DNA of 38,971 bases, taken from the NCBI GenBank assembly GCA_903835325.1, contig CAILMU010000240.1, positions 1-38,971 on the forward strand. The letters are read 5' to 3'. Shown piece after piece: positions 1,788 to 34,593 of this stretch (the first letter of the stretch is position 1; every line of letters begins with the position of its first letter). Source of the DNA: an uncultured Candidatus Micrarchaeota archaeon. GTDB lineage: Archaea; Micrarchaeota; Micrarchaeia; Anstonellales; Bilamarchaeaceae. A model generated the notes under the pieces. That model was not told where the DNA came from. It did no database searches and saw nothing but the letters and a program-made list of their open reading frames with translations. The translations under genes and the position numbers were made by a program.

Positions 1788-1796
1788 ATTAAAAAA
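1788..1796 (-). promoter_or_regulatory. TATA box of purD (leaderless spacing)
   Basis: TTTTTTAAT on the minus strand, 23-31 nt upstream of ATG 1765. Confidence 0.55.
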
Positions 1797-1819
1797 CGAT
1801 AGTTGATCCGCTCTCTTTT

Positions 1820-2146
1820 CTATTTGCTCCCCAAGAGATCCGCGATGGAATCCATGAACGATTTCTTGAGAGGCTTCTTTATCGAGAACGTCCGGACTAT
1901 CGGGTAGTGCCTGACGATCTCGAAATTGAATTCCGATGAATCGGAATTGTAGGCGTTGGTATCGGCGCTGCCATCATCGGGCGCATATGCCTTCGGTTTC
2001 GAGCGCTCGGGCTTCTTCCCTTGTTTCTTGGTGCCTCTGCGCTCGTCCGCTTTCACCGCAAGGCGCGCTTCCGGCGAGTCCGGGTCCTCTTTCTCATCCG
2101 TAGGATCCACCCAGGAATCGTCTTCCATGCTTGAGCTGCCTTTCAT
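1820..2146 (-). CDS. Small hypothetical protein, largely disordered, last gene of the ATPase operon
   Basis: 108-aa ORF with an ATGA overlap with the upstream gene; charged low-complexity N-part and a hydrophobic C-terminal segment. Confidence 0.65.
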   Translation of the reverse strand: MKGSSSMEDDSWVDPTDEKEDPDSPEARLAVKADERRGTKKQGKKPERSKPKAYAPDDGSADTNAYNSDSSEFNFEIVRHYPIVRTFSIKKPLKKSFMDSIADLLGSK

Positions 2147-2859
2147 TCGAAACGCCTCCGGATGTAGCCTCCATGAAGAAGCAGGTTCAGGCCGTCCTCG
2201 GCCCTGGTGTGGACGATGTTGTTGGCTTTCGCGAATTCCTTGATGTCAATCGTTCCGCCATGCATCTTTATCCAGTTGAAAAGCGATTCCTTGAGAAGGT
2301 CGTCGCTCATGCCGTTCATTTTCGAGATGCGCTTCTCGAGCTCCTCGCGTTTCTGCTCGCATTCGAGAAGTATCCTCGTGTTCGCCTCGCTCGAGCGGAC
2401 CAGGTCGTTGTATTTGGCGACCAGGTCGGTGTGCCTGGCCTGGAGTTCTGTGAACTGGGTCGACATCTCGGACGCGTCATGGTCTACGACTTTGGAAAGC
2501 TCTGTTATCACTTCATTCACTGAGGAATAGACGCAGCTCGGAGCGATGCTGTAGTATTCCTCTGATACCCGCAGGATGTTCAGGAAGGTCGGAAGCACCT
2601 CGATGAGGCGGCTTACCCGGCTGCGGTTCTCAGGGATGGAGAAGACGAGCTCTATCTCGTCAGGGCGGAACTCTATCTGATATTCCAGATACGGGTTGCC
2701 CCGGAGATCCTGGCCCTTTATCTTCTCTATCGAGAGCGTGTCGCTCATGAACGCTATCTTGCTGAAACCAAGGCCGCTGAAGAGGCCGGCTAATGGCTTC
2801 AGGCTGCCTTTTCGGCTGGCCGCTATCCTTATCCTTTCCTCATCCGGCATTTGAATCAT
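2143..2859 (-). CDS. Coiled-coil protein with C-terminal winged-helix domain (start uncertain: 2868, 2859 or 2850)
   Basis: Heptad-like region (FTELQARHTDLVAKYNDL...KREELEKRISKM) followed by LFNWIKMHGGTIDIKEFAK...LNLLLHGGYI. Overlaps the ATPase stop. Confidence 0.8.
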   Translation of the reverse strand: MIQMPDEERIRIAASRKGSLKPLAGLFSGLGFSKIAFMSDTLSIEKIKGQDLRGNPYLEYQIEFRPDEIELVFSIPENRSRVSRLIEVLPTFLNILRVSEEYYSIAPSCVYSSVNEVITELSKVVDHDASEMSTQFTELQARHTDLVAKYNDLVRSSEANTRILLECEQKREELEKRISKMNGMSDDLLKESLFNWIKMHGGTIDIKEFAKANNIVHTRAEDGLNLLLHGGYIRRRFE

Positions 2860-4306
2860 CCAACACAACGTTGACGACGCCTTTCGTGGCTTTCCTCATC
2901 TTCACCAGCGAGAACACCTTGATGAGGTTCTTCTCATCGATACCGAGCTGGCGGAGGAACGATATTATAGACGGCCTGGAATAGCCGAACTTCTCCAATA
3001 TGGCGACAAGCTTCTCGCCATCGAGCATACCGTCGCCCTTCTCGAACTCCCGTTTAAGCATGCTGAGCTGGCTCTCGTTCAGGCCGAATTCGTATAGCAT
3101 CCTGACAAACTGCTCCCGTTCAATCTCAACGTCCATATCCCCACCATGTATCCTGAACAATAGCAATGGCTCTTCGCCGTCTATCTTATCCATCAAGAAC
3201 GTCATGACTCTGGATTGCCTTGCCGAGAAAATCATGTTCACGGCGGCATCGCCTACACCGAAACGGGATATCTCCGAATCGATGAAGTTCGAATATCCGA
3301 CGGATGCGCGCACATAGTCCCTGAACTCCTTGAGGACAAGGCGCAGGACGAATATCGTCCCGATGTTGCTGAATATCGTCTTATGGATGTCCGTCGGGTT
3401 CTGGGTCGCGACTATCAATGAGAAGTTGTACTTGCGGCCTTCGCGGACAATCGTGATGACATCGCTCCGTTCATCCTGGGCTATCTTCCAGGCTTCGTCC
3501 AGGACCACGAAGAGGCGCACGCGCTTGTCTTCCTCCTTCAGGCTTTCCGAACGCATTATCTCCTTGATATATTGCAGTATCGTGAGCCCTGCTAGGCTCC
3601 TCATCTCCTCTGTCGGGAGGTTGTGGAGGTCTATGCAGACAAGGCCGCTCCTGGTCAAGGTCTTGAGGTCGAAAGTCGAGGTGCCTGCGAAGAAATCCGT
3701 GCCTTCTGATGTGAAGCGCTTCAAGAGGCGCGCGGCTTTCTTGTCGCCCTTGTCTTCGAGGACTTCGACGACATCCAATAATGTCGGCTTGTTGCCCTTG
3801 CCTTCTTTCACCTTGCGGTCATAGACGGCTTCGAGCGCCTCTTCGATATGGTCCCTCTCGTTCGGATAGCTCTTGAGGTCGCAGAGTATGTCGAGCGAGG
3901 ACACTATCTGCTTTATCCTGCTCCGTGAATTCGTGCCGACCAGGTCGAGTATGTTGAGGCGCTCCTCGCCGAGGTTGATGACCTTTCCCCCGGCCTGTTT
4001 CACCCAGCGGTCGTATTCCCCGACCCAGTCAAGGATGATGGCGTTCGTGTTCCAGATGAGGGAGGCCCGGGTGAGGAATGTCTTCACAGTGTAGGATTTG
4101 CCGGCGCCGGTTATACCCAAAATCGCGATATGAGGGTTGATGAGTTTGCTGGGGTCCCAGAAGACCGGCGTCCTGAGGAACCTTGTCTTGCCGATATAGA
4201 CCCCGTCGCTGGGGGCTGAAAGAAGCAGGTCCTTCCTTGGCTCTGGAGGGTGCACTAGAATCATCTTGCGTGCGACTTCCTTGGAGAGCATGTACGATAG
4301 CTTCAT
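2840..4306 (-). CDS. VirB4/CedB-like (HerA/FtsK superfamily) ATPase
   Basis: NPHIAILGITGAGKS (Walker A), ILDWVGEY, VVLDEAW (Walker B), REGRKYNFSLIVATQ (arginine finger and conserved Gln). Confidence 0.9.
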   Translation of the reverse strand: MKLSYMLSKEVARKMILVHPPEPRKDLLLSAPSDGVYIGKTRFLRTPVFWDPSKLINPHIAILGITGAGKSYTVKTFLTRASLIWNTNAIILDWVGEYDRWVKQAGGKVINLGEERLNILDLVGTNSRSRIKQIVSSLDILCDLKSYPNERDHIEEALEAVYDRKVKEGKGNKPTLLDVVEVLEDKGDKKAARLLKRFTSEGTDFFAGTSTFDLKTLTRSGLVCIDLHNLPTEEMRSLAGLTILQYIKEIMRSESLKEEDKRVRLFVVLDEAWKIAQDERSDVITIVREGRKYNFSLIVATQNPTDIHKTIFSNIGTIFVLRLVLKEFRDYVRASVGYSNFIDSEISRFGVGDAAVNMIFSARQSRVMTFLMDKIDGEEPLLLFRIHGGDMDVEIEREQFVRMLYEFGLNESQLSMLKREFEKGDGMLDGEKLVAILEKFGYSRPSIISFLRQLGIDEKNLIKVFSLVKMRKATKGVVNVVLDDSNAG

Positions 4307-4455
4307 GGGTAACTCCGCTTCATTTGTATATTATTAGCTACTCTTTGCAGGTATTTAAAGGTTGATGGTTGGCAGGACGACGGAAAGATAGGGGGAGATG
4401 AAGGAAAGATGGAAGGAAAATGAATGGAAAGAAAGAAGGGTCGGGAGCTGGGATA

Positions 4456-5917: not shown

Positions 5918-6901
5918 ATGGTCGATATAAATAACATCAAGCTCGACAAGGCAGACAGGCTTATTCTGGCTGAGCTGGATAAGAACTGCCGTGTGCCTAC
6001 ATCGAGACTTGCCAAACTCGCCCGGAAATCGCGCCAGAGCATCGAGTATAGGATAAGACGGCTCGTAGAACAGGGCATCATCACAAGCTTCAACGCCTCG
6101 ATAAACCCGCACAGGATGGGCTACAAAATCTACAAGATATATCTCCAGTTGCGCAACCTCCCTAAGGAGAAAGCGGCCCTTTACGCGTATCTCCGAACAT
6201 CCGGCATCGTCTACTGGATGGGAGAGGCTGACGGTGCGTGGGACCTGATTTTCGGCGTCTTCGCGAAATCCGATTACGAATTCTACGCGCTCAAGAACGA
6301 GATGGTATCGCAGTTCGGCCCGATAATCGTGAAGAACTATTACGATGTTCTAGTCGATGTGAAGCAGTACCCGAAGATGTACTTCACCAACGAAATCTCG
6401 AAACCGACCATGTTCGCAGGCGAGATAGTGGTGAACGAGCTCGATGCGCTCGACCATGCGATTCTGGGCGAGATGGTGAACAATGCGAGGATCCCCATAA
6501 CCGAACTAGCGGCGAAAACCAAGTCGAATCCCGCGACGGTCGCGAACAGATTGAAGAGGCTGGAGAAATTAGGTATCATCATCCAATACCGCATCGGGGT
6601 GGACCTCAATAAGCTCGGGCTCGAGTACTACAAGGCTATTCTCCATCTCGACCGGTATACGAAAGAAGACGAGAAGAGGCTCCTGGAATACATGTCCGGC
6701 CTTCCATGCACGCAGTATTTCATCCGCAATATATGGGATATCGAACCTGAGCTGGTCGTTTCGGATTATCATGAATACCGCGAGATAATCGAACGCGTGA
6801 AGGACGAATTCCCGCTTGTCATCAAGAACGTGGAGACCGCTCTGATGAAGAGCGATGAATGGACGCCGGGGTTCAGGAACCTCCTCAAAGCGAAGGTCTA
6901 G
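5918..6901 (+). CDS. Tandem (double) Lrp/AsnC-family transcriptional regulator
   Basis: Two AsnC HTH units: LDKADRLILAELDKNCR...LVEQGII and LDALDHAILGEMVNNAR...LEKLGII, each followed by a RAM-like domain. Confidence 0.9.
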   Translation: MVDINNIKLDKADRLILAELDKNCRVPTSRLAKLARKSRQSIEYRIRRLVEQGIITSFNASINPHRMGYKIYKIYLQLRNLPKEKAALYAYLRTSGIVYWMGEADGAWDLIFGVFAKSDYEFYALKNEMVSQFGPIIVKNYYDVLVDVKQYPKMYFTNEISKPTMFAGEIVVNELDALDHAILGEMVNNARIPITELAAKTKSNPATVANRLKRLEKLGIIIQYRIGVDLNKLGLEYYKAILHLDRYTKEDEKRLLEYMSGLPCTQYFIRNIWDIEPELVVSDYHEYREIIERVKDEFPLVIKNVETALMKSDEWTPGFRNLLKAKV

Positions 6902-6925
6902 CCGCGCTTGTAAAAGCCAGGATAG

Positions 6926-7753
6926 TCATCTTCGTTCTGCGAAGCCCAATGCAGAAATCAGCTGGTTCCGGTAATGCTTGCCTTCATCGATAGTGCGATC
7001 GTATAAGCCGAGGCTCTGCGCCATGCGCTCAAGAGAATTCGGGTTCTTTGGCCTCAAAAGTATCCCGCAGGCGCTCCCCAGCATTTCAAGGACATCCAGG
7101 ACATCGTTCGATAGGACAGCGGAGGTCTGTGGATCGAACGGCAAGCCCGCCGAAGCGAGCAGTTTCGATACGGCAGTCATCTTGGTCATGACAATCGTAT
7201 CGCCATCCATGGAATCCTTTGCGCCGATTATGGTCTCGAATCCTGCGAAATCATGCCCCCTGACCCGCTCGATGCTTCCGATGGCGTGCCTGAAGCCCAG
7301 GCTCCTTGCGACATATTGGGCGCTCATATCCGAGCCTCGCGTTGCGAGGACAGGCGTGATGGCGAAATCCCTCCCGGCCCGAAGAAGAGCCTCCGCAAGG
7401 CCCTTTCGGAAGCCTCCGGAATATTCCAGCTTCTTCATTATATCTGTCCAGTCGGCCTGCCTGAATCCCGCGGCATAGATATCGGCGAATATCGCCATAT
7501 GCAACTGGTCAAGGCCCATCTCCCTGCGTTTGACCTTGCGCGAGTAATCTGCGAGGCGCTCCTTGGCTTCCTCCTTGCCGTATACCCGCTCGAGAGCGAC
7601 CTGCGCCGAATCCTCGGTGGTGAGCGTGCGGTCGATATCGACTATTATCGTCTCTATCCTGGGCATATGTTTCGCCTTGGCCATCGTCCGCCGCATCGCG
7701 AAACGAGCGCTGGATGATGCTACGAGTAAGAATGGATTCTGGTTGATGCCCAT
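6926..7753 (-). CDS. HAD-superfamily hydrolase, phosphoserine-phosphatase-like (start may be downstream)
   Basis: Motif I IIVDIDRTLT, motif II LATRG, a conserved Lys (TK), and a divergent motif IV (SNDVLD). Confidence 0.75.
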   Translation of the reverse strand: MGINQNPFLLVASSSARFAMRRTMAKAKHMPRIETIIVDIDRTLTTEDSAQVALERVYGKEEAKERLADYSRKVKRREMGLDQLHMAIFADIYAAGFRQADWTDIMKKLEYSGGFRKGLAEALLRAGRDFAITPVLATRGSDMSAQYVARSLGFRHAIGSIERVRGHDFAGFETIIGAKDSMDGDTIVMTKMTAVSKLLASAGLPFDPQTSAVLSNDVLDVLEMLGSACGILLRPKNPNSLERMAQSLGLYDRTIDEGKHYRNQLISALGFAERR

Positions 7754-17789: not shown

Positions 17790-20078
17790 ATGCGCCGTGC
17801 ACTGATACTGGCCGTGGCACTCGTCATATTCCTGGGCGCCTTCGGCTGCATAGAGCAGAAGGATTACCCGAGCGTCAAGAACGAACAGCTCGCCGCCACC
17901 AACAGCGTGGATCTGGACAATGACGGCGTAGCGGATCTTTCAGTGTATGATTTCGCGCCGGTTGCTGTCTCAGGCACTGACCTGGTCGTGCAACGCCAGC
18001 TCAGCGTTGCGATACGCTCGAGCGCGACATTCAGCAAGACGAACCCCAACCTGACAGACCTCGACCTCCTCACGGCTGATTCGAACCTCGAGGAGTTCGG
18101 CAAATCCAAGGACCAGGCGGTTGGTTCCTGCAGCCAGGCGATAGGCCTTTTCAACGTCGTATGTTCCGACACCGAGACATGCAGCAGGCTCTGCTCGAGC
18201 AACTCGGTAAGGTGCAAGAAAATCGCCGCATCCTACCAGGATGTGCTGGCAGGCTCCATGATAGGATACATCCAGAACACGAACGAGATAAGCTCGCTCA
18301 TCCTCGATATGCGCAGGATGGTCACAAGCCTGCGGACCGGGACGGCCGAGGACCGCGACAACTACCTGGACAAATCTCGTGCGCTCATCGAGGAGATAGC
18401 GCAGGTGGAGACCAACCCGCTCTACACGAGCAAGGACATGAGCCTCTGCGCCCCGCAGGATTTCGGCGTGTCATACCTGATGGATGCGGTATCCGGGATA
18501 GGGACGTATTCCAGCGAGCCGACGGGCTATCACTATACGATGACAGTTTCCGTGAAACCGGCTTCCGGTAACAACGCCAAGATGAGCTCGGAGATAGGGT
18601 CGCTCGCGATAACAGACAAGATACCGAAATCCGTCGTATCCAACAAGGAAGCGATATCATCGGTCCAGACCCTCGCCACTTCGGATAACGGCAACAGCAT
18701 AGCCATGTCGTGGGCGGAAGCGAAACCATCGGATCAGGGAAGGATATTCATCTACGAGTTCGATTCGTCTTCATCCCCTGATATCCTCATGCCTTCGCTA
18801 ACGAGCCCTGCTGTCAGCGTGAAAAGCATCAACCTCATCTGGCTGCAGCCGACCAACATGCTCTTCAGCGCGGTCTACGGCTTGAGCAGGAATTATTTCT
18901 TCGCCCTCGGATTGGCCATAGGCGCCACCATCGCAGCCATTCTCCTCGTATATAACGTGGCGATACTGCTCTTCACCCTCATCAGCGAGAAGACGGCCGG
19001 GGCAGGCCTCAGCACGGCGTTCAGGAGGGCATTCGGAAGGACCGAGATTCGCTGGAAGAGCGACCTGGCCCTGTCTGTGATTGTGCTCATAGCCGGATAC
19101 TATCTTTCCGGATTCGTCGCGACTCAGCCGGATACCGGCTCGACGATAGTGGATTCATTGGATATACTTTTGAAGAACGGCGTCGGCATGGTCTCTGCTT
19201 GGCTCGTCCTTGCAGGGGCGATCCTCATCTATTTCGCGCTCGAGAACATCGTGAAGATAACGCTCCTGGAGATGTCGTACGGCAAGATACTCAAGGCTGA
19301 GAAGGAGACATTCGTGCAGAGGGCCGACGGGGTCAAGGAGCGCATCAAAGCCTTATCAGACCTCATAGACGCCTATCGCGAGGAGGACTTCGACATCAGC
19401 AGGGAATATGATGTGCTCACGACAGTGAACCCGCAGAAGATAGATGATATCGTGAAAAGCATGACCCCGAGGTCAAAGGCCATGCTGGATGACTACTCGA
19501 TACACATCGACGGCGCCATCAGCACGCTCAAGGAGCGCAAGAAGCTCGCGGACGACAGCTGGCCTAGATGGAAGGACAGCATAACGAAATCGCTGGAGGA
19601 GCATGACGAGGTTTATGCCTCGAACCTTGTGACCATCCCAGCGTCCCTGCGACTCTGGGCCCTCAGCAAGTATGTCGCTGAGAAGAAGAGCGAGGGGCTC
19701 GTCTTCGAGCACGACGCGCTGCGGAAGAAACGCATCGACCCCGCATCCGTAGTCAGAGACATGATAGAAAAAAAGCTCATCCGGGGCGCCATCGTCATCC
19801 AGGACGAGAAGATAACGATATCCGAGTTCGCGGACGGCAATGCGACATTGCGAAGCGCGCTTGCCATGAAGCTCAGGACTTATCTCTATTCATTGACCAA
19901 GAATATAGCGCAGCGCGAACCGGCGAGGTTCCTCTCTGTAGGGAATAAATCCGTGCTCCTGTTCTTCAAGGGAAGGGCGAGCGAGACAATGCTTTTCCTT
20001 GATAAGGATAGGGTCAAGGAAGCGATAGAGGGCTGGAACAGCAAGATGGCTCCTGGAGAAACGGGCGCGAGTGGCTAA
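17790..20078 (+). CDS. Large membrane lipoprotein of unknown function
   Basis: MRR + hydrophobic core + AFGC lipobox; DLDNDG loop; Cys-rich segment; 3-4 TM helices; charged C-terminal half. Confidence 0.8.
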   Translation: MRRALILAVALVIFLGAFGCIEQKDYPSVKNEQLAATNSVDLDNDGVADLSVYDFAPVAVSGTDLVVQRQLSVAIRSSATFSKTNPNLTDLDLLTADSNLEEFGKSKDQAVGSCSQAIGLFNVVCSDTETCSRLCSSNSVRCKKIAASYQDVLAGSMIGYIQNTNEISSLILDMRRMVTSLRTGTAEDRDNYLDKSRALIEEIAQVETNPLYTSKDMSLCAPQDFGVSYLMDAVSGIGTYSSEPTGYHYTMTVSVKPASGNNAKMSSEIGSLAITDKIPKSVVSNKEAISSVQTLATSDNGNSIAMSWAEAKPSDQGRIFIYEFDSSSSPDILMPSLTSPAVSVKSINLIWLQPTNMLFSAVYGLSRNYFFALGLAIGATIAAILLVYNVAILLFTLISEKTAGAGLSTAFRRAFGRTEIRWKSDLALSVIVLIAGYYLSGFVATQPDTGSTIVDSLDILLKNGVGMVSAWLVLAGAILIYFALENIVKITLLEMSYGKILKAEKETFVQRADGVKERIKALSDLIDAYREEDFDISREYDVLTTVNPQKIDDIVKSMTPRSKAMLDDYSIHIDGAISTLKERKKLADDSWPRWKDSITKSLEEHDEVYASNLVTIPASLRLWALSKYVAEKKSEGLVFEHDALRKKRIDPASVVRDMIEKKLIRGAIVIQDEKITISEFADGNATLRSALAMKLRTYLYSLTKNIAQREPARFLSVGNKSVLLFFKGRASETMLFLDKDRVKEAIEGWNSKMAPGETGASG

Positions 20079-20174
20079 AATTTTTTCTGAACTTTCTTTA
20101 GTTTTTATTATTACACAGAATGGAATTGTGGCACAAAACCTTAAATTGTATTAAATCATCAAATATATTATATT

Positions 20175-21560
20175 TTAGGATTTTTTATTCAATAAATATC
20201 TAGACGAACGATACTGCCCAATTTTATTCAACCTTCCTTGGGCAGTTAATTCATTGAGATCTCGGATAGCGGTAGGATGTGAGATCCCTACGATTCTTGC
20301 GAAAACTGGTGCAGTTATGAACTCGTGTTTTTCTAGATATGCAAGGGCTTTTTGCTGACGCTCCGTTATTATTCCGAATGCCCTCACGGCTCGAGAAGAT
20401 AAAGAACCATATAGAGTTACCCTGAAAAATCCCCCAAGATCGTCGAAAACTGGGTCGGGAAGGTCATTTTGACGCATTATTCTTATCATGTCTTTAACTC
20501 CAAGATTAAGGCCTTCTCCCCAACCAGCATCGTTCAAAACCCGATGGATGAGCGGGTTCCTGTGCCGGCGAATATCTGCGAAATTCTTTAATGTTTGCCC
20601 TGGAAGTAAGGTTCCTGGATTTGAAATTTGTATGCGATCGACAAATATTTCTACTAAAACTCCATTAGGATCGAAGTAGTCCCTGTGTCCAACTGCATTT
20701 GTCAATGCCTCTCTAAGAACTCGATCAGGTATCATAGGGGCTTCAATCCTTTTGCCATTTACGATCCGAGCCGAGATGCCTGCTTTATCCTTAACGAGAC
20801 TGAAACAGGTCTCAAGAACTTCCAGCAAAGTATCATTCAGTCTCATATCAAATTCCCTTGCTTTCATGCTTGGGAAAAATCCCTTATATTTAACAAGACG
20901 AATCTCTGAGTTCAAGAAGAAGCGTGCAATGTTTTTAGCGAAAGCAAGTACGCCAGCGTTTTTAATATAGAATGGCCCCATGCTGTTCGCTACACCTATA
21001 CTCGTTAAAATTGTGGCGAAATCAATACCTTCAAATTTCTCTGCTTCAGTTCCACGAAGCAATAATAGCTTATGAACTTTTCTCTCATCAAGATCCTCTA
21101 TTTTTGCATTGGATGGGTTTTCTTCGAAAGATATTACCCCCCTCGCTTTGAGGAACTCGATAAGTTCGCGCTTACTTAGTTCGACGTTCACTGAGCCTTG
21201 CCTAATAAAAGCGAATTTTTTTAGAAAACATAATTCAGAGACAGGAAGCGGGCCGATTTCAACCAAAATGATAAGATGTGAATCAACATCATGCTCTTCC
21301 ATGTTGCATTTGGGTCGGGGATCAAGCATGGGCAAAATATTGGCGATTTTTTGATATGCTTCATCGCGATTTGGAACTCCAACAACATGAATATTATCTT
21401 CTTGTTCTTCAACTCCTAAGATCAATATTCCCCCGCCAGAATTGGCGAAAGCGCAGAAGGTTTGGCCAATCCTGTCTGTGAATTGAGCCGACTTTTTAAA
21501 CTCCAGTTTGGAACCTTCAGGTTGCTGGAGCAAAAGTGCTACCTGGTCTTTCGAAAACAT
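20175..21560 (-). CDS. AlbA_2 (Schlafen-like) + HATPase_c_4 + HTH protein (RecG-C-like family)
   Basis: EGSKLEFKKS, CAFANSGGGILILGV, LREALTNAVGHRDY, ISNPG, RNPLI, C-terminal HTH TAIRDLNEL. AT-rich relative to its flanks. Confidence 0.9.
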   Translation of the reverse strand: MFSKDQVALLLQQPEGSKLEFKKSAQFTDRIGQTFCAFANSGGGILILGVEEQEDNIHVVGVPNRDEAYQKIANILPMLDPRPKCNMEEHDVDSHLIILVEIGPLPVSELCFLKKFAFIRQGSVNVELSKRELIEFLKARGVISFEENPSNAKIEDLDERKVHKLLLLRGTEAEKFEGIDFATILTSIGVANSMGPFYIKNAGVLAFAKNIARFFLNSEIRLVKYKGFFPSMKAREFDMRLNDTLLEVLETCFSLVKDKAGISARIVNGKRIEAPMIPDRVLREALTNAVGHRDYFDPNGVLVEIFVDRIQISNPGTLLPGQTLKNFADIRRHRNPLIHRVLNDAGWGEGLNLGVKDMIRIMRQNDLPDPVFDDLGGFFRVTLYGSLSSRAVRAFGIITERQQKALAYLEKHEFITAPVFARIVGISHPTAIRDLNELTAQGRLNKIGQYRSSRYLLNKKS

Positions 21561-21917
21561 ATAAATATATTAAACAGAGAGATATTTAATACTATTTAAT
21601 ATAAAATTCAAACGAGGATACCCAATTATCTTCGAAGAAACTACGGGAGTGTAACCTTTACATGTAACTCCTGAACCACATGCAATGTTATTTTCACACA
21701 ATCTTAAGAATTATGACGCGTAAAGGATTTTTGAACAAAACCATGGCGCTAATAAATCATTTTTGTACAAACCTCCCGGTTTATATGCAACCAAAAATCT
21801 GCGTATTCCGCCAGCTGAAACCGGCACGAATTTAAAGCCTTCCAGCCATTACTTTTCTACCAAGAAATTCTGAATTCTACCGACGTGGTTTTGGCATAAT
21901 GAATCAGTGGTTTTCAT

Positions 21918-23807
21918 ATGGCATCCGACAGCGCTTACACGGCCAAGGAAATACAGGTTCTTACAGGCCTAGACGGGGTCAGGAAAAGGCCCGGGATGTA
22001 CATAGGCGACACGGCAAAAAGGGGCCTCCACCACCTGGTCTACGAGATAGTGGATAACAGCATAGACGAAGCGCTCACAGGCAACTGCAAGAACATATCC
22101 GTTGAACTCAGGAAAGACGGTTCTGTCCGGGTTATTGATGACGGGAGGGGCATCCCTGTGGATATGCACCCCTCCGGGAAATCAGGCCTGGAGCTGGTCG
22201 CGAGCTCCCTGCACGCGGGGGGGAAGTTCGACAAGAATGCCTATAAGGTATCGGGAGGGCTTCATGGCGTGGGGATGGGGGTCGTCAACGGCCTCTCGGA
22301 ATGGATGGATATCGAGGTCCACCGCGACGGCAAGGCATTCAAGATAGGCTATGCCAGGGGGAAGCTGAGGGAGCCCTTCAGGAGCATCGGCCCGGCAAAC
22401 GACCGCGGGACGATAGTGACATTCAAGCCGGATGGCATGATCTTCCCGTCTGTCGAATTCGATTACGATTATTTGCGCGAGCGCATCATGGAGCTCGCAT
22501 TCCTGAACAAGGGCCTTCGGATGGTCCTCGTGGACGAACGGACCGATAAAAAGGAGGAGTTCCGCTACGAAGGCGGCATCGTGGAGTTCGTGAAGCATAT
22601 CAACGAAGCCAGGAACAAGCTCCATGAGCCGTTCTACCTGAACAAGAAGACGGACAGCATCGAAGTCGAGATAGCCCTGCAATACACCGACGGCTACACG
22701 GACAGCATCTACAGCTTCGTGAACGACATCAAGACGATAGAGGGCGGCACCCATGTGGTGGGATTCAGGACAGCCCTCACCCGCGTAGTCAATGATTACG
22801 CCAAATCCAGCAAGTACATCAAGGAGGACCAGAAGATAACCGGCGACGATGCTATCGAAGGCCTGACAGCGATAATCAGCGCCAAGGTGCAGGAACCCCA
22901 GTTCGAAGGCCAGACCAAGACCAAACTGGGCAACAGCGAGGTCCGGGGAGCCGTAGACAGCATAACATACGACGCCTTGAAATCATATTTCGAGGAGCAC
23001 CCGCAGATAGCCAAACCGATATTCTTCAAGATCCACAACTCGATGGAGGCACGGGAAGCGGCCCAGAAAGCGAAAGACCTGATAAGGCGCAAGAACGTGT
23101 TCGAGAGCAGCGTCTTGCCGGGGAAACTCGCCGATTGCTCGGAGGAGGACCCTGCCAAATGCGAGATATATTTCGTGGAAGGCGACTCCGCCGGCGGATC
23201 GTCAAAAGGTGCCCGCGACCGCAGATTCCAGGCCATCCTTCCGCTCCGTGGGAAGATCCTGAACGTGGAGAAGGCGCCGATACACAAGATAATCGAGAGC
23301 GACGCCATCCGGAACATCGTGCTTTCTCTGGGGGCAGGCTTCAAGGAGGATTTCGACCCGGCGAAACTGAGATACCACAAGATAATCATCATGACTGATG
23401 CCGATGTCGACGGCTCGCATATCCGCACTTTGATACTGACCCTGTTCTATCGTTACTTCAAGAGCCTTATCGAGAAGGGATACCTGTACATCGCGCAGCC
23501 TCCTCTTTACCGCATCCAGAAAGGCAAGTCTGTCCAATATGCATACAGCGATGCGCAATTGGCCGATGTCCTGAAAGCCGTCGGGGGCGAAGCAGGCATC
23601 CAGCGCTACAAAGGCCTCGGTGAGATGAACCCGGGCCAGCTCTGGGAGACCACGATGGATCCGGAGACAAGGACATTGAAGAAGGTGACGATAGAGGATG
23701 CTCTTCTAGCTGATGAGCTGTTCACCCTCCTCATGGGAGACCTGGTGGAGCCGAGAAGGGCCTTCATCGAGAAGCACGGCGCCAGCGTGAGGAACCTGGA
23801 CATCTGA
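21918..23807 (+). CDS. gyrB: DNA gyrase subunit B
   Basis: [59 protein letters not shown]. Confidence 0.97.
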
Positions 23808-27982: not shown

Positions 27983-28450
27983 TCAGAGACCGAGCATTTT
28001 GAGAACCATATCCGCGGCCATGGATTCGTTCAGTTTGAACAGCTGGTCCATGTGGTAGACCGCCTCATCGGACTTGTTCAGGGCCATGGCGAAGACGAAC
28101 ATGCGCTTCTGCAATTCGTCGGTGCTCTTGCGCTTCTCAATGGTCTTCAATAGCTCATATCCTTGCGTGTATTCGCCCTTGTTGTAGTAGGCGGAACTGG
28201 TCAGCAGGGCTGTCACAAGCATGTCGTCAGCGGAGCTCGCCAGGTTGAATGCCTTCCTGCCCTCGATCTTCGCTTCGTCGTACTTGTCCAGGCGGTATGC
28301 CGCGAGAGCAAGCAGGAAATGCGCGAGCATCTCGTCAGGGTGTGCATTGACGAATTCCTTGGACAGCTCGTAGGCGCGCTGGCGGTCCTCGTTCCTTATG
28401 AAGATGGCAAGCTGCCTGGCGAAGGCTTCCTTTTTCGTGAATTCGACCAT
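27983..28450 (-). CDS. Small TPR-like protein, paralog A
   Basis: 155 aa, all-helical; P....AHFLLA.AAY.LDKYDEA and AYY..GEY..G patterns; full-length similarity to 31126..31587. Confidence 0.8.
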   Translation of the reverse strand: MVEFTKKEAFARQLAIFIRNEDRQRAYELSKEFVNAHPDEMLAHFLLALAAYRLDKYDEAKIEGRKAFNLASSADDMLVTALLTSSAYYNKGEYTQGYELLKTIEKRKSTDELQKRMFVFAMALNKSDEAVYHMDQLFKLNESMAADMVLKMLGL

Positions 28451-28568
28451 TGGGTATCGATTGGCAGGCGAGGAATAAAAAACATGCGATAGGCTTTCCG
28501 CATCGGAAAAAGCTGGAAACCGCCGCGCCTGCCATCAAAATAAAAATATCGCCGAACATAGGCTTTGC

Positions 28569-29660
28569 ATGTGCCCCGAGACGAAACGGGCGGCCATAGC
28601 CGCCCAAACCGAAGAAGCGAAGCTCACGATGCCGAAGGCCTCGAATGTGATGGCTGATTTCTGCAAGACCAACAACATCAGGCTGGATGCCATGATGCCT
28701 GAGATCCCCATGCTCCAGCGCTTGGTCAATAAGGCGAACAAGATGGAAGGCGACAAAGCCGAGAACCTGAACACGCTGTTGGGCCAGTATTTCCTTTCTA
28801 AGATAGATATGGCCAAGAAAGAGGGCAATTACAATTTCCTTGACAGGCTGACCCAGTCGCCTAGTGAGAGCCGGGTAAGGAACGAGAGATGGATAAAGGA
28901 AGGCTCCGACCACCCGCGGATGAAGGCCCTTGCCGGGATAGAGAAGACGATAATGGAACGGCTGCCTGCGACGTATTTCCCCGAGGAGCTCGACAGGCTG
29001 GCCACGGAAGGGAGGAGGCAGACGGGCGAAAAAGACACTGAAGGCCTTATCTCAACTGTGAAAAGGATGACGGTCATCCAAGCCGCTTACGCGGAACGCG
29101 ACCCGGAAGCCGCGAAGGCATATGAATCGGTCGTGAAGAATTTCGGCCTCAGCGCCGGGAATCTGGTTCTGTCCAGGACGACCGATACAATCGGTGATGC
29201 CGAGCAATTCTACATGAAATCGTCCTACCTGCATGACCTGAAGAAGGCAAGGGAATCAGGTTACTCTCGGATGGATGAATTCCTGGTTTCCGCCCAGAAG
29301 GACACGGTTACCCTGGACGAGATGGAAAAGAAAGGGCAGCTGGACGACGGTCAGAAAACCAGGCTGGCGGATTATCATAAAAGGCTGGATAGGCTCGAGG
29401 AATTCAAAAAAGCCCCGGAAGCGCAGCAGCGCTTGATTGCGTATTCAGCGATGTCGAAAGACGAGCTGCAGCGCGAGAAAGAGTACTGGGATGGCAGGCT
29501 CGCCCAGGCCCAGAAGAGGTTCGAGGCCGATTCCGCGAAAATCAAGGATCCCAAGGCCGCGAAGGCATTGGCCGAGAATTTCAAGAGCCAGACCGAAGAC
29601 ATCAAAAGGATAACGGAAGACGTGCAGTCTGCAATCGACAGGCGCGGGAAGACGGCATGA
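28569..29660 (+). CDS. Charged alpha-helical orphan protein, paralog 1
   Basis: 363-aa ORF without TM segment or signal peptide; shares blocks with 29709..30602. Confidence 0.8.
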   Translation: MCPETKRAAIAAQTEEAKLTMPKASNVMADFCKTNNIRLDAMMPEIPMLQRLVNKANKMEGDKAENLNTLLGQYFLSKIDMAKKEGNYNFLDRLTQSPSESRVRNERWIKEGSDHPRMKALAGIEKTIMERLPATYFPEELDRLATEGRRQTGEKDTEGLISTVKRMTVIQAAYAERDPEAAKAYESVVKNFGLSAGNLVLSRTTDTIGDAEQFYMKSSYLHDLKKARESGYSRMDEFLVSAQKDTVTLDEMEKKGQLDDGQKTRLADYHKRLDRLEEFKKAPEAQQRLIAYSAMSKDELQREKEYWDGRLAQAQKRFEADSAKIKDPKAAKALAENFKSQTEDIKRITEDVQSAIDRRGKTA

Positions 29661-29708
29661 TGATATATGGCCCGGAATCAAGGGCGATCATAACAGGAGG
29701 ATGAGGAT

Positions 29709-30602
29709 ATGCCAGAAGCATTCAAGCCCAAGGAGGAAGTCGGAGCCCTCACGAAGGAGAGGACGCAGGAGATACTGCATTCGTTCCAGCAGAAGTACGG
29801 GATAACCTCCCAGATGCTTCTGATGGATGTGGGGAAGATTTCTGAGATGCAGAGGAAGGCTGCGACCGGGACCGAATTCAGGCAGTCTGTCGGGACTTAT
29901 TTCCTGAACAAGATAGAGCAGGCAGAGAAGTCCGGGAACACTGCATTCTTGGACAAGCTAACCGAGGGGAACATCCAGAAGATAAGGGCGGAGTTCGGCC
30001 TGGGGAAAGAAACTGTCATGGAGAAGGACAGGGCTTTGTCCGCCCTCGAAGGAAGGATAAAATCCATCGAAGTCACCGGACCGACCGGAGAGGCGAGCAT
30101 GACAAGGTTCGAAGACGCAAGAAGGAGCCTGGATGGTGCAAGGGCAGCTATAGGGGAATTGGCCGGGATAAACCTTCCTCCCGGGCAGAGAGCCGAACTC
30201 ACATCGTCCCAATGGAAGAGGCTGGAAGAATGCAGGAAACAGCTTACTGATAAAGAGGAGTTTTATGAGGACAGGCTGGCTGCTTTCCGCGGGAGGCTCA
30301 CAGAGCAGTATACCGCGATGAAAACGCCCGAACTGCGGAAGGAGATGTCGAGCATCCAAGTGCAAGCTGCTAAGGACCAGGCCGTGCTGAGAAATCCGAA
30401 AGCCAGCGCCGATGCAAGAGAGGAGGCTATGGACAGGTTGGCCGGGGCTATCGAGAGCATGCATGCGATAGAGGATACATTATCATCCAGGAAACAGGAG
30501 CCCGGGACCGCAGCCATGGCCCAGAACGCGGCTTCGATCGCCACCACGCTTGAGAAGAGCGCCGAAACGCAGAGGAAGAAGAGCGGGCAGGGCGTCGCAT
30601 AG
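29709..30602 (+). CDS. Charged alpha-helical orphan protein, paralog 2
   Basis: 297-aa ORF with AGGAGG Shine-Dalgarno upstream; shares blocks with 28569..29660. Confidence 0.82.
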   Translation: MPEAFKPKEEVGALTKERTQEILHSFQQKYGITSQMLLMDVGKISEMQRKAATGTEFRQSVGTYFLNKIEQAEKSGNTAFLDKLTEGNIQKIRAEFGLGKETVMEKDRALSALEGRIKSIEVTGPTGEASMTRFEDARRSLDGARAAIGELAGINLPPGQRAELTSSQWKRLEECRKQLTDKEEFYEDRLAAFRGRLTEQYTAMKTPELRKEMSSIQVQAAKDQAVLRNPKASADAREEAMDRLAGAIESMHAIEDTLSSRKQEPGTAAMAQNAASIATTLEKSAETQRKKSGQGVA

Positions 30603-30610
30603 CGGCCTGT

Positions 30611-31108
30611 TCATATTCCGTTTTCGGCATTATCCAGCAGGAATGCCAGGCATTCCTCTTTCTTCCCTTTTCTTTTGTTCCATTTTTTCACGAGTTTTTT
30701 GTGCGTTTCGAGCTCCGCAACCAAACGATCCCGCCCGATATCCGGAGCGCCGAATCGGAATAATATTTGCGATGGAAGCGGGCAGAAGCGCGCATTGATT
30801 CTCGAATCGAGCTGATAGGGGTATCTTTTGCACGAGAGCGGGGCGGATTCGTGGATTGAGCAGCGGTTGTCTTTGTTTAGATAAGCGCACGGGTGCGAAC
30901 GGATTCCGAGAAGATAGTAGCCATACCCATCGGTCGTATCGAGCACCATGTCCGGGTCGTAGCTGAGGAGCCGGGGCTCGTGTAAAAAGGCGATATCTTC
31001 GGGTAGTTTCCCGGTCTTTGAGGAAATCCTCAGGATATCGAAGATGGTCGTGGTTATGGTGTACGTCTTGCAGCATTCGGCTGAGCAGAATACGCAGGGG
31101 TTGACCAT
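30611..31108 (-). CDS. YkgJ-family (CxxCxxCC) putative Zn/Fe-S cluster protein
   Basis: CVFCSAECC...PCAYL...CSIHESAPLSCKRYPY. Confidence 0.85.
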   Translation of the reverse strand: MVNPCVFCSAECCKTYTITTTIFDILRISSKTGKLPEDIAFLHEPRLLSYDPDMVLDTTDGYGYYLLGIRSHPCAYLNKDNRCSIHESAPLSCKRYPYQLDSRINARFCPLPSQILFRFGAPDIGRDRLVAELETHKKLVKKWNKRKGKKEECLAFLLDNAENGI

Positions 31109-31125
31109 ATGGCGCACTGGCGGAC

Positions 31126-31587
31126 CTACCTGGTGAATTTGCTCACCAGGCTCATGGCGGCGTCCTTGTTCATCCGATAGAGCATCTCGGCGTGCTCCAG
31201 GGCCGCCTTCTCGTTCTTCAGGGCGTAAGAGAACAGGAAGAGCATGGTGCGCACCTCCTCATCGTCCCTGAGCTCCTTTACGGAACAAAGGAAGTCGTAT
31301 CCTTCCCGATAACGGCCGGCCTTGAAGAATGCGCTTGCCATGAGTATTGCGCATATCAGCATGTCCTTCTCGTTGCTCATGTTGAACGCTTTCCTGCCTT
31401 CAAGAATGGATTCGTCGTATTTGTCCAGCCAGAATGCGGTTTTCGAGAGCAGGAAGTGCCCGGCCAGGTCATCGGGGAATTTCGTGACTAGCTCTTTTGC
31501 CATCGGATAGGCCTGCCTGTAATCCTCGTTCTTCAGGTAAAGCGCGACTTGTTTTATGAATGCCTCTTTCTTCGTGAACCCTGCCAT
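31126..31587 (-). CDS. Small TPR-like protein, paralog B
   Basis: 153 aa from ATG 31587 (MAGFTKKEAF aligns with MVEFTKKEAF of paralog A). Confidence 0.8.
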   Translation of the reverse strand: MAGFTKKEAFIKQVALYLKNEDYRQAYPMAKELVTKFPDDLAGHFLLSKTAFWLDKYDESILEGRKAFNMSNEKDMLICAILMASAFFKAGRYREGYDFLCSVKELRDDEEVRTMLFLFSYALKNEKAALEHAEMLYRMNKDAAMSLVSKFTR

Positions 31588-31650
31588 GTGGTTGTTCTTG
31601 CTGACTATGAATAAAAAGGATGGGGACGGAATAGGTATGAAGTGATATTC

Positions 31651-33708
31651 ATGGCTGAATCGGCGCAGAAGACTCAGGAAAACATAGCTGTATTGCAGAA
31701 GCAAGGGGAAAGCGAACTGACAAGGCTGGCTGGCAGGGTCGGGATGAGGATAAGCGGCGATGAGGTAACGAACGTGGTGAGAACCGCGATTGATAACGCT
31801 TCCAAGAGCGTTCGCGCTTATGGCGGTTCAGTGGGGCAGTCGCAGGTCAATGCAGCACTCAGCGACTGGCTGAGCGGGAAGGGGAAAGACATGGAGACAT
31901 CGTTCCTCAGCGCGCATGGCAAAGAGCTCGAAACTGACGCCAGGAGAATGCTGGGGCCGGCTGCGGCCGGCAATGATGCCAAGATCCAGGAGGCCGTGAG
32001 GAGGACCGCTGAGATGTTCGTTGCGTATCCTGAGACATACAAGACATACGATAGGGACCAATTGAAAGCTCCGCTCCAGACCGCGCTCGAGATGCAGGGG
32101 CTGAAGCGAACAGCACCTTCGGCACCGGCCGAGGCTCAGCAGCAGGCGGCGAAGAAAAGGAACGAGGGACCATCAACACAAGAAAGGGCATGGATGGAGA
32201 GGCAGATGGCTGGTGGTTTGCCAAAGACTTCTACTCCGACGAAAAAACCCGAAGAGTATAAACCCGAGAAGGAGGCGGTTGCTGCTCCGGTGAAGAAAGC
32301 AGAGGAGAAGGAAGCCAAGAAAGCGGATTTAGTGGCAAAACAGCGAGACGATGCTGCCAAGCTGCAGAAGAACGCTTCGGATAAGGTAGCAGCAAGGAAA
32401 GCTGCACAAACCGAAGAGACGAGAGTTAAGGAAACCAAATCTGCAGAAGCTGAGAAGAATAAACGGCAGGCAGTGCTGGATAAGCAGAATAAAGCGGTGG
32501 CAGAATTAGCGGCCAGGAAAGCTGCACAAGGCGAAGAGAAAAAAAGGCTGGATAAGGACAAGGCCGATAAAGCCCTTGAAATGGCTGCAGCCAGGGAGAG
32601 GTTGGCCCAAAGAGCCGAGGCAGCGCGGGAATTGAAGCAACAAAAAGATGGAGAGAAACGGGCGAAAGCTGAGCAAGCGCAGGCAGCGAGCAAAGCCCAA
32701 GCCGCTGCTAAGGTTCAGGAACAGGCCGAGCGAGCCGCAGCAGCAAAAGAAACAGCTAAGCAAAAAGCTGATGAGGCGCGGGCAGCTGCGCAAGCCAGGC
32801 AGGCCCAGGAAGCCCCGGTAAAAGCGGCGAAACAGCAACAGCAGACAACTGCGCAGAAACCAGCTTCGGAAAAACCGAAAACCGCGCCTTCTGTTTCAGC
32901 CGAAGAAGCGAAGGAGAATGTGAGAAAGGCGACACGTGCTGTATCAGCTGTTCAGAATGCCCAGGATACGATAGCCCAATATGGTTATCGGGCTCTCACA
33001 TACGACGAATTTTTGAATGGGCATAAAAAAATGAACGTCGATGATAGGGATTATACTGGAATCAAAGGAGCGTTAGAGGCAGCACGAAATATCTCCACTC
33101 CTAAAGTGAACTCGGCTCGCGAAGATGTCGAAAAGAGGCTTCCTCGATTCGCAGAGATCGAGAAAGGGCTCGCAGATAAGGAAAAAGAACTTACCGGATA
33201 TAAAAGCAAAGGCAAGGAAGAGGACGCCAAAAAAGTCGAAACCGAGATTGATTCTTTAAGAGGAGAACGTCTGACACTTTGTAACGAACTTAAAGTCCCA
33301 ACTTTGAAGCTTGTTAGAGAGCTTCAGGCAGCTGCCGAAGATTACGGAAAAGGGATACGGGACGCTGCAGCCAGGAAATCCGCGGGATTGCTTCCGCCTG
33401 GAGTAAGTGTGAAAGGGAGTGGGACAGTCGCATCGCCATATCAGATTTCCTTGCCGGGAGGCGAGGTGATGCAGACAGCGAAAATAATGCTCGGCCGGAA
33501 AAATGATGAGGTTGTTTTCAATATCCAGACACCAAGAACCGCTTTCGAGGATGATAACAAGAAAACGCAGTATTTGGCAGCCTTGTCTGATACGATGAAA
33601 CAGCTGATGTATACCCGTTATGGGCTCGCCAATGCTTCAGATAGCGACAAACACGAAGTCGATGACAGTGTGTCGAAATATGTTGGCCGGCTCTCGGGGA
33701 TTGTTTAA
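31651..33708 (+). CDS. Large orphan with central Ala/Lys/Glu/Gln-rich coiled-coil stalk
   Basis: 685 aa from ATG 31651 (GTGAT SD-like element); TolA-like composition in the middle; no TM segment. Confidence 0.82.
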   Translation: MAESAQKTQENIAVLQKQGESELTRLAGRVGMRISGDEVTNVVRTAIDNASKSVRAYGGSVGQSQVNAALSDWLSGKGKDMETSFLSAHGKELETDARRMLGPAAAGNDAKIQEAVRRTAEMFVAYPETYKTYDRDQLKAPLQTALEMQGLKRTAPSAPAEAQQQAAKKRNEGPSTQERAWMERQMAGGLPKTSTPTKKPEEYKPEKEAVAAPVKKAEEKEAKKADLVAKQRDDAAKLQKNASDKVAARKAAQTEETRVKETKSAEAEKNKRQAVLDKQNKAVAELAARKAAQGEEKKRLDKDKADKALEMAAARERLAQRAEAARELKQQKDGEKRAKAEQAQAASKAQAAAKVQEQAERAAAAKETAKQKADEARAAAQARQAQEAPVKAAKQQQQTTAQKPASEKPKTAPSVSAEEAKENVRKATRAVSAVQNAQDTIAQYGYRALTYDEFLNGHKKMNVDDRDYTGIKGALEAARNISTPKVNSAREDVEKRLPRFAEIEKGLADKEKELTGYKSKGKEEDAKKVETEIDSLRGERLTLCNELKVPTLKLVRELQAAAEDYGKGIRDAAARKSAGLLPPGVSVKGSGTVASPYQISLPGGEVMQTAKIMLGRKNDEVVFNIQTPRTAFEDDNKKTQYLAALSDTMKQLMYTRYGLANASDSDKHEVDDSVSKYVGRLSGIV
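32395..32529 (+). repeat. Intragenic repeat with 120-nt (40-aa) spacing
   Basis: AGGAAAGCTGCACAA at 32395-32409 and 32515-32529; AARKAAQxEE occurs twice in the protein. Confidence 0.75.
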
Positions 33709-33753: not shown

Positions 33754-34593
33754 CTATTTTTTCCAAGGTTCCAGGCGTAGGTCCTTTATCCGGGGTCCGG
33801 ATATCCGTATCTCGACCGAGTTACTATCCTCCTTGCCGAAACACACTCCCCCTCCGCAGGAAAAGAAGGATGAATTAAGCGCGTCAATGCCTGCAGGCAA
33901 TATCGCGCTGTGCGCATCTGCATTCGGAGAAACAGTGATGACTAAACCGGAGCCGAGAGCCATATATAAGAGGCCTTCATCCGAAAATGTCTTCGCTCCC
34001 CGGACATCTGCCTGCAGTGGATAAGCCCGTACCTGGTCCATGTAGGGCGACGTGAAACTGATTTTCGCATCGTTTGTGAGGAAGACGCAGCTTTCCCTGC
34101 ATGCAAAGCCAAGAACCGCGTGCCTGGTGATTGTCGATATGTCTTTTGGTTGAGGGAAATAGTAGTCGGGCGTCAAGGTGAATGTGGTTCCGGGCATTGC
34201 GTTCATCGTGAGCCTGACCATCAGGTTAACCATATCCTCCTTGTCATCTACGATGGAGTAAGAGAGAAGTTTATTCCCGGCAATAGCGAAAACTTTGTCT
34301 TCTATGAGTGAAACAGAGGAGGGCGTTTCGCTTCCAAACCCCTGGTCTATCGTGACGCGCGCCCCGTTTCTTTTGGTGTATAATATCTTGTTATCCTTGA
34401 TTTCGCACTTCGGTTTCGTGGAAGGCGGGACTGACCTTGAGAAAGCCGATTCGAGGTTCCTCCATTCAGGCCTCAATGCCCCTTTCGCCTCATTGATCCA
34501 GGAAACCATCGGCAACGCAGAAACCGCGAGGGCGAGGGCTGCCTTCGCAGCGGCCTGCCTCATCCGCCCATGTTCTAGTTTCTGGTGCATCAT
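33754..34593 (-). CDS. Hypothetical exported or membrane-anchored beta-rich protein
   Basis: Basic N-terminus plus Ala/Leu-rich helix, then short beta-strand-like segments with Cys pairs. Confidence 0.7.
   Translation of the reverse strand: MMHQKLEHGRMRQAAAKAALALAVSALPMVSWINEAKGALRPEWRNLESAFSRSVPPSTKPKCEIKDNKILYTKRNGARVTIDQGFGSETPSSVSLIEDKVFAIAGNKLLSYSIVDDKEDMVNLMVRLTMNAMPGTTFTLTPDYYFPQPKDISTITRHAVLGFACRESCVFLTNDAKISFTSPYMDQVRAYPLQADVRGAKTFSDEGLLYMALGSGLVITVSPNADAHSAILPAGIDALNSSFFSCGGGVCFGKEDSNSVEIRISGPRIKDLRLEPWKK

Follow-up and report, generated by a model that had tools for sequence, protein, structure and literature searches.

The question addressed here is what is encoded by two neighbouring regions of a 38,971 nt contig (CAILMU010000240.1, hereafter the window) from an uncultured Candidatus Micrarchaeota archaeon (GenBank assembly GCA_903835325.1), in each of which a small gene for a tetratricopeptide repeat (TPR) protein stands head-to-head with one or two genes for larger proteins. 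The TPR proteins are designated TPR1 and TPR2, and the divergent open reading frames (ORFs) are named by the length of their products in amino acids, ORF363 and ORF297 being found next to TPR1, and ORF685 next to TPR2. The two regions are two copies of a genus-restricted, duplicated and co-diverging gene pair, in which the TPR protein is matched with a partner that combines a new N-terminal domain with a polymorphic C-terminal part. As judged by the sequence evidence presented below, the chances are about even that the TPR protein binds the conserved N-terminal region of its partner as a dedicated adaptor or chaperone.

The TPR family

TPR1 and TPR2 (155 and 153 aa) share 42% identity over 151 aa (E 4e-46), and both pass the curated Pfam cut-off of 27.2 bits for the ANAPC3-type TPR family PF12895, with 35.0 and 36.5 bits, respectively. 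The initial annotation, made from the sequence alone, had described two paralogous TPR-like genes of about this size, and was correct in this respect. The AlphaFold2 (AF2) model of TPR1 (predicted local distance difference test score, pLDDT, 95.4) includes nine helices arranged as four hairpins and a cap, and in a Foldseek search its superhelix was superimposed on the consensus TPR 8chy (E 3.9e-5, TMq 0.79, root mean square deviation 1.9). The consensus TPR, MamA, PilF, KLC, Sgt2 and OGT, i.e. generic TPR proteins, were among the matches listed for the model. Likewise, designed TPRs and the TPR domain of CHIP were the best profile matches of TPR1 among PDB sequences, and all NCBIfam matches were far under their cut-offs.

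TPR1 and TPR2 are the only copies of the family in the host genome (1.59 Mb, 246 contigs), the genes of which are of archaeal type. Across the genus, 30 of 40 genomes carry one to five copies each and 10 carry none, and searches of 24 genomes from other families of the order returned just two weak generic matches. When 1.84 billion representative proteins were searched with the TPR profile, 51 matches were found at E<=1e-30; the 55 best matches were all proteins of 115-209 aa, and were followed by long generic multi-TPR proteins. A contig scan with TPR1 produced just two matches, both to bacterial generic TPR proteins. In a maximum-likelihood tree, TPR1 and TPR2 belong to different subclades, each of which has its own conserved genomic context, and the duplication of the module is therefore old rather than recent. 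Helices A2-B2-A3 are strongly conserved in all paralogues.

An N-terminal domain shared by the partner proteins

The partners had been described as highly charged helical orphans, divergent from the TPR genes across short spacers and devoid of hydrophobic segments. The arrangement and composition were confirmed: TPR1 and ORF363 diverge across 118 nt, with ORF297 following ORF363, TPR2 and ORF685 diverge across 63 nt, and all three proteins consist of 31-34% D/E/K/R and include no hydrophobic 19-residue window. They are cysteine-poor, helix-rich and predicted to be cytoplasmic, and reach no cut-off in Pfam, NCBIfam, PADLOC or PHROGs. ORF363 and ORF297 are paralogous in their N-terminal part (36% identity over 58 aa, E 6e-8), and BLAST detected no relation of ORF685 to either of them. 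Homologues found in a collection of 5.8 billion proteins were limited to two for ORF363 (99% and 88% identity) and two for ORF685 (82% and, over half the length, 55%). Single-protein searches with ORF363 and ORF685 and a small profile of the ORF297/ORF363 N-terminal part found nothing in the 39 other genomes of the genus.

Relatives were nevertheless reached with a wider profile. The ±7 kb around 40 TPR homologues were fetched and genes were mapped with a crude ORF caller. The upstream neighbour was divergent for 34 of 47 TPR genes, as compared with 256 of 565 other genes, and the divergent partners fell into at least 12 families unrelated by BLAST. The first 85-95 residues of ORF363, ORF297, ORF685 and the partners from other species can be aligned to one, very diverged pattern. 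Comparison of the first 95 aa of 13 partner families using hhalign gave a mean of 14.1 and a maximum of 33.7, with 15 of 78 pairs above 20 and three pairs at ~80% probability. None of the controls behaved in this way: N-terminal against internal segments (156 pairs) reached a maximum of 17.3 (Mann-Whitney p 9e-7), internal against internal segments (78 pairs) 19.4 (p 7e-8), and the N-termini of 24 helix-rich non-partner proteins (312 pairs) 19.3, with no pair above 20 (p 6e-10). The C-terminal 130-aa segments of the partners shared no domain (105 pairs, maximum 20.0). Judging from these profile comparisons, the partner N-termini are similar through homology and not through composition, and make up a domain of ~85 aa (the N-domain) that is absent from domain databases.

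A combined hidden Markov model (HMM) matched four proteins that were not used in training, all of them at the very N-terminus and all encoded close to a TPR gene (E 9e-6, 7e-4, 1e-3 and 0.068), and the best other match among the 1508 proteins of the host genome had E 0.46. A genus-wide profile of 24 sequences, searched against the 40 genomes, yielded 31 matches in 18 of them, and recognised ORF363 at E 1e-17 and ORF685 at E 1e-14. In 22 of the 31 matches the gene is directly divergent from a TPR gene and within 172 nt of it, and 6 of the 10 matches that were not in the training set have this placement. Thus, the linkage of TPR genes to such partners, on which the initial annotation depended, recurs elsewhere in the genus. 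At E<1e-4, the N-domain was detected in 17 of 30 TPR-containing genomes and in none of the 10 TPR-less genomes (Fisher p 0.002, related genomes not being independent). Since ORF363, ORF297 and ORF685 share the N-domain, they are not true orphans, though the statement that they belong to no known family holds: in a Pfam scan of 14 N-domain partner proteins none reached a cut-off, each of the 24 weak Pfam families seen with the N-domain was matched by just one of the 24 members, and the best match among PDB sequences had E 0.056. For ORF685 and the proteins of partner family c23, no full-length similarity was found, and their N-domain profiles matched with ~80% probability.

The AF2 model of ORF297 is all-helical (pLDDT 76), with residues 1-11 disordered and residues 16-96 forming a fairly confident helical bundle (84-91), and beyond the N-domain it is composed of long helices with just generic spectrin-like or helical-bundle matches. 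With this model, nothing was found by Foldseek at E<=0.001, and ORF297 gave no usable match in the ESM Atlas. VIA-align returned generic helical bundles (Z<=12.1), mostly over residues 100-297, and the fold of the N-domain was therefore barely probed.

Two variants of the arrangement were seen in other genomes. Two TPR paralogues lie tail-to-tail, 207 nt apart in locus L027 (genome G035) and 19 nt apart in locus L036 (G011). In L036 each of the two is turned outward towards an N-domain partner, making back-to-back modules, and in L027 this holds for one of them, the other having an upstream neighbour on the same strand. In locus L037, a Q/E/T-rich unit of ~20 residues is repeated several times in tandem at the end of the partner (6144-6953, minus strand).

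Selection and strain turnover

The ratio of non-synonymous to synonymous substitution rates (dN/dS), computed for TPR1 against two close strains, is 0.02. Values for the other genes are 0.065-0.10 for TPR2, 0.12 for ORF297, 0.20 for ORF363 and 0.26 for ORF685, with 0.056 for GyrA. The TPR genes are therefore under strong purifying selection, and few genes of the locus are as constrained. The partner values of 0.12-0.26 indicate that the partners are real coding genes under purifying selection as well, which change faster than the TPR genes.

Strain dynamics were followed on three metagenome contigs of close strains, L068, L069 and L070. In L068, where TPR1 is 99% identical, the gene order is unchanged and the partners are 87-88% identical. 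In L069 (TPR1 94%, GyrA 93%), a single 321-aa protein stands in place of ORF363 and ORF297, with the N-terminal part alone retained, and the homologue of ORF685 is 52% identical over the first 340 aa, the C-terminal part being different. In L070 (TPR1 89%), TPR1 faces a 210-aa ORF297-like protein, and TPR2, ORF685 and ORF279, the gene that follows ORF685 in the window, are all missing. Hence, these last three genes are jointly present in L069 and jointly absent in L070.

Promoters and co-divergence

The initial annotation had pointed to an identical element upstream of both TPR genes, and TTTTTATTC is indeed found at -31..-23 of TPR1 and at -30..-22 of TPR2. It occurs three times in the window as compared with 0.30 expected (0 of 100 shuffles reached 3), the third copy being at 20182 in a low-GC island. 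However, it is not special to this pair of genes. An A/T run of at least 6 is present within -36..-19, around -30, in 38 of 49 TPR family members, and TTTTTATTC is therefore an ordinary archaeal TATA box. Its distance from the ATG of TPR1 implies a leaderless or near-leaderless mRNA, and the TPR genes are probably leaderless, as far as can be predicted from box positions. The copy between TPR2 and ORF685 is the sole box with at least 7/8 A/T in that spacer, its centre lying ~24 nt from the TPR2 ATG, and it may serve both directions. Spacers of 48-63 nt from start to start were found in 14 of 20 TPR-partner pairs, and in 6 of these 14 the spacer contains just one A/T box, at its centre.

Two of the three best N-domain links mirror the TPR tree. 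The link between the ORF297/ORF363 family (F297) and family cl19 corresponds to the joining of the TPR1 clade with the clade of cl19 TPRs, found in a threonyl-tRNA synthetase (ThrRS) context (support 93/92), and the link between ORF685 and c23 corresponds to the grouping of TPR2 with the c23-associated TPRs of loci L029 and L054 (80/74).

Comparison with known systems

The assignment of the TPR proteins to the SycD/IpgC class of secretion chaperones, which the initial annotation had offered as an analogy, is not supported by sequence, as they have no match to the SycD/LcrH family. LcrH/SycD models were absent from the Pfam matches at E<=1, from the NCBIfam matches at E<=0.1 and from the 60 PDB profile matches listed, and the only NCBIfam model related to type III secretion was SctY, with 22.3 bits against a cut-off of 70. 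Class II type III chaperones identify their divergent clients by a short motif in the N-terminal region, and bind a short N-terminal client peptide in a concave groove (PMC3443056). The system described here would be similar in logic, with a conserved TPR protein, divergent clients and putative N-terminal recognition. Like SycD/LcrH, IpgC and PcrH, TPR1 and TPR2 are small stand-alone proteins (the class measuring ~150-170 aa) with no domain other than TPR, encoded beside the putative client. They differ in having four repeats and a cap instead of three, and in being archaeal. In addition, the clients of the bacterial chaperones are hydrophobic translocators with transmembrane helices, whereas the partners here have no predicted transmembrane segment. 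No injectisome genes were found in the window or in the 40 related loci, the window genes and the flanks of those loci being housekeeping genes; the whole genome was not searched for injectisome genes.

Polymorphic effector and toxin systems, such as the LXG-Lap proteins of type VII secretion and the Eag and Tap adaptors of type VI secretion, combine an N-terminal trafficking domain with a dedicated adaptor. The module resembles them in that a conserved N-domain is fused to unrelated C-terminal parts which are rapidly exchanged, and in that the adjacent gene encodes a small conserved partner. It differs in that the adaptor is a TPR protein, no match to the N-domain was obtained in Pfam or among PDB sequences, no C-terminal domain is recognisable as a toxin or enzyme (0 of 14 scanned), and no secretion system is linked. 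No recurrent family corresponding to a cognate immunity gene was seen downstream in the gene maps, in which small ORFs were not systematically analysed.

The small TPR scaffolds MamA and PilF rank with the best structural matches of the TPR1 model, their query-normalised TM-scores being 0.68-0.78. However, the NCBIfam match to MamA is weak (25 bits, far under the cut-off of 200), neither a magnetosome nor a pilus context is present, and MamA and PilF are not paired with a polymorphic partner family. The match to CHIP, a TPR of the Hsp70/Hsp90 co-chaperone type, is a generic profile match (E 7e-6 over 65 residues). TPR domains of this type hold an acidic, EEVD-type C-terminal tail in a two-carboxylate clamp, and no acidic EEVD-like tail was found among the partner C-termini listed.

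Proposed function of the module and alternatives

In the explanation favoured here, the first component is a small cytoplasmic protein of four TPR repeats. The second, encoded head-to-head across a shared promoter spacer, consists of a short disordered N-terminal peptide, the N-domain, and a C-terminal part which has no relation from one module copy to another and is quickly resized, replaced or lost between strains. The module, present in 0-5 copies per genome of the genus, was duplicated long ago, and TPR and partner seem to have diverged together. Both genes would be expressed together, from divergent and probably leaderless transcripts, each TPR protein would serve as a dedicated adaptor, chaperone or receptor that binds the conserved N-terminal region of the neighbouring protein, and the variable C-terminal part would be the working payload. 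Given that the TPR is conserved and that only the N-domain of the partner is conserved, any contact between the two proteins should involve the N-domain. A complex prediction for TPR1 (alignment A2) with the N-domain of ORF297 (A1), run with no controls, scored 0.30 relative to a mark of 0.32, and is evidence neither way. The idea of a duplicated chaperone-cargo unit, put forward at the outset, is thus retained in part: the module of TPR and helical partner is recurrent, and its conservation pattern fits a chaperone or adaptor with clients, but the duplication is old, as seen from the different subclades.

Several observations weigh against this reading. The homology of the N-domains is weak at the sequence level, with the best profile-profile probabilities only ~80%; in alignment A4 the mean column identity is 18% and no column is invariant, a conservative jackhmmer search joined none of the 13 partner families, and of 11 families tried with leave-one-family-out HMMs just 4 were recovered (ranks 3-4, E 0.004-0.13). 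The training sequences of the genus-wide profile were picked for TPR adjacency, and the figure of 22/31 divergent matches is therefore partly circular, while many TPR-partner pairs are orthologous and do not represent independent events. Among TPRs from other species, the enrichment for a divergent upstream neighbour of at least 190 aa without transmembrane segments is modest (12/41 against 80/497 in the background, with crude ORF calling). Some N-domain proteins (families c52 and c23) are encoded 2-5 kb from the TPR gene and are not divergent from it, and the third of the best N-domain links, between locus L031 and c52, does not mirror the TPR tree. Only 22 of 55 TPR genes have an N-domain partner and 33 have none. 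The latter include a well-supported subclade (100/98) of 10 members (L032, L039, L041, L042, L044, L045, L047, L050, L053 and L064, with TPR genes near 6900-7500), called PGM/c18 after its context. Its members have a C-terminal extension of ~15-20 aa, and lie just 3' of a phosphoglucomutase (PGM) gene or an EF-Tu-domain-2-like gene, in operons with housekeeping genes. As this clade, about one-third of the family, has no N-domain partner, the TPR family may have more than one role. Finally, the family-wide conservation of several TPR helices could point instead to a ligand common to all paralogues.

This last point leads to the view that TPR and partner are co-regulated neighbours that do not bind, the TPR being a general scaffold with its own conserved ligand and coupled to the partner by the bidirectional promoter only. 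The partners would then be coiled-coil or spectrin-like scaffolds, nucleoid- or envelope-associated proteins or hydrophilin-like stress proteins, in which the N-domain serves self-assembly or localisation. We regard this as doubtful, though deserving serious consideration. The conservation of helices A2-B2-A3 in all paralogues and the extremely low dN/dS are compatible with one common ligand, and the long helices of the ORF297 model, with their generic matches, and the long A/E/K/Q-rich middle of ORF685 (net charge +22) would suit scaffolds of this kind. The 33 TPR genes that lack an N-domain partner, some being operonic with enzymes, also speak for this view. However, module copies have kept the head-to-head pairing even where BLAST no longer recognises their partners as related, TPR and partner subfamilies show signs of having diverged together, and no TPR-less genome yields the N-domain at E<1e-4. 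A further possibility is that the TPR is a secretion chaperone that holds its helical client in a state fit for export and passes it on to a secretion or cell-bridge apparatus, the fast-evolving payloads acting on a host or competitor cell, but this appears unlikely. The architecture resembles that of polymorphic effector systems, and the partners turn over between strains. The conserved small TPR, the conserved N-terminal region, the polymorphic C-terminus and the strain turnover also recall class II type III chaperones (PMC3443056). However, the partners have no signal peptide, transmembrane segment or recognisable effector or toxin domain (0 of 14 scanned reach a Pfam cut-off), their dN/dS reflects purifying selection overall and not positive selection, and no secretion apparatus is linked, the flanks in the 40 loci being housekeeping genes (ThrRS, PGM, Ser/Thr kinase, dehydrogenase and gyrase) and those of the module in the window likewise including no secretion apparatus genes.

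Export via the VirB4-like machine encoded in the window, as had been suggested, finds no support. The gene in question (2840-4306, minus strand) encodes a HerA/DUF87-AAA_10 ATPase and is 24 kb away. This HerA/VirB4-superfamily ATPase is encoded by a core gene of the genus: all 40 of 40 genomes have it, those 10 without TPR genes among them. It shows no linkage to the TPR genes, as its orthologues are encoded on different contigs or at a distance of 20 kb or more (tens to hundreds of kb). The ATPase has 2-6 paralogous matches in each of the genus genomes, and the orthologue of most genomes is matched as two segments of a single open frame of ~536 aa, which suggests an insertion relative to the 488-aa form of the window. 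The corresponding broader idea, an undescribed archaeal system in which small TPR receptors recognise a shared N-terminal targeting domain and escort diversifying helical payloads to an export or cell-cell transfer route, is in our estimation improbable. Least probable, and by some distance a poor candidate, is a conflict module (toxin-antidote or antiviral defence) in which the variable C-termini are toxic or sensing and the TPR neutralises or senses. Polymorphic C-termini and presence or absence at the strain level are typical of conflict systems, and TPR sensors occur in known defence proteins. However, PADLOC and PHROGs gave no matches at E<=0.1 except for one 9-bit match to JetC, no toxin domain was found in the partner proteins scanned against Pfam, and TPR2, searched as a single protein, had no relative in viral contigs. 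Moreover, an immunity protein would be expected to vary along with its toxin, whereas the TPR gene is more conserved than any other in the locus.

Layout of the locus and other features of the window

The genes of the window, as identified from the ORF listing and family scans, occur in the order GyrB, GyrA, acyltransferase, phosphoribosyltransferase, TPR1, ORF363, ORF297, CxxCxxCC protein, TPR2, ORF685, ORF279 (minus strand), ORF333 (plus strand), GatE and GatD. Coordinates of the module and its immediate neighbours are given in Table 1.

Table 1. Features of the two TPR-partner modules and adjoining genes in the window.
Feature	Position	Strand	Description
TPR1	27983..28450	-	155 aa, stand-alone, four TPR-like hairpins and capping helix; ORF, Pfam PF12895, AF2, Foldseek
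TTTTTATTC, TATA-like box of TPR1	28473..28481	-	-31..-23 from ATG
ORF363	28569..29660	+	Partner; N-terminal family domain at ~residues 1-96 (HMM match), then variable helical C-terminal part
ORF297	29709..30602	+	Tandem paralogue of ORF363 with same N-terminal domain; ORF297 form retained beside TPR1 in more distant strain L070
CxxCxxCC (PF03692) metal-binding protein	30611..31117	-	Pfam 37 bits, cut-off 23; 8 nt downstream of TPR2, same strand
TPR2	31126..31587	-	153 aa counted from ATG; TPR1 paralogue; longest ORF extends to 31704
TTTTTATTC, box in TPR2/ORF685 spacer	31609..31617		-30..-22 of TPR2; candidate shared TATA of bidirectional promoter
ORF685	31651..33708	+	Partner; N-terminal family domain at ~residues 1-95, long A/E/K/Q-rich helical middle, C-terminal part replaced in L069
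ORF279	33754..34593	-	Strain-variable; hydrophobic signal-like N-terminus; no family in Pfam scan

The CxxCxxCC protein is a conserved neighbour and not a component of the module, as it is present in L070 without TPR2. The membership of ORF279 is uncertain: it is 31% identical in L069, and missing from L070 together with TPR2 and ORF685. The conserved flanking genes were also considered as a clue to function, and were rejected since they are unrelated housekeeping genes.

Other observations concern the rest of the window. The PurD gene (2-1765, minus strand) includes an inserted Hint and LAGLIDADG segment that looks like an intein. In the low-GC island (20001-22000), the GC content is 0.40 as compared with ~0.55 elsewhere, and this DNA was possibly acquired. 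It includes a gene (20175-21560, minus strand) for a 461-aa protein with Schlafen/AlbA_2, HATPase_c_4 and HTH domains. A 767-aa ORF (17775-20078, plus strand) belongs to no Pfam family, and an ORF of the same length adjoins GyrB in L069. The GyrB homologue at locus L043 (genome G012; 1169-4363, plus strand) is 1064 aa long compared with 629 aa in the window, and may contain an intein or another insertion.

Significance

No published description of the TPR-partner module was found in the full-text literature on Micrarchaeota/DPANN tetratricopeptide repeat proteins, as represented by titles and the first parts of abstracts. Archaea with small genomes carry many lineage-specific genes of unassigned role, and their dealings with partner cells are a question of the field. 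Three apparent orphans of one such genome are now members of a definable family, which only the wider 24-sequence profile could trace into other species, and the N-domain family provides a handle for finding fast-evolving proteins of the genus. The combination of a new N-terminal domain, variable payloads and a dedicated conserved TPR also gives a testable hypothesis, namely that the TPR binds the N-domain. If TPR receptors do escort the partners to export or transfer, the partners would be the first candidate delivered effectors of the lineage, and if the payloads are exported or active on other cells, the module would represent a new adaptor-client system in archaea. If they are not exported, it would still be a clear example of gene pairs that were duplicated together and diverge together, with a compact bidirectional promoter between the two genes.

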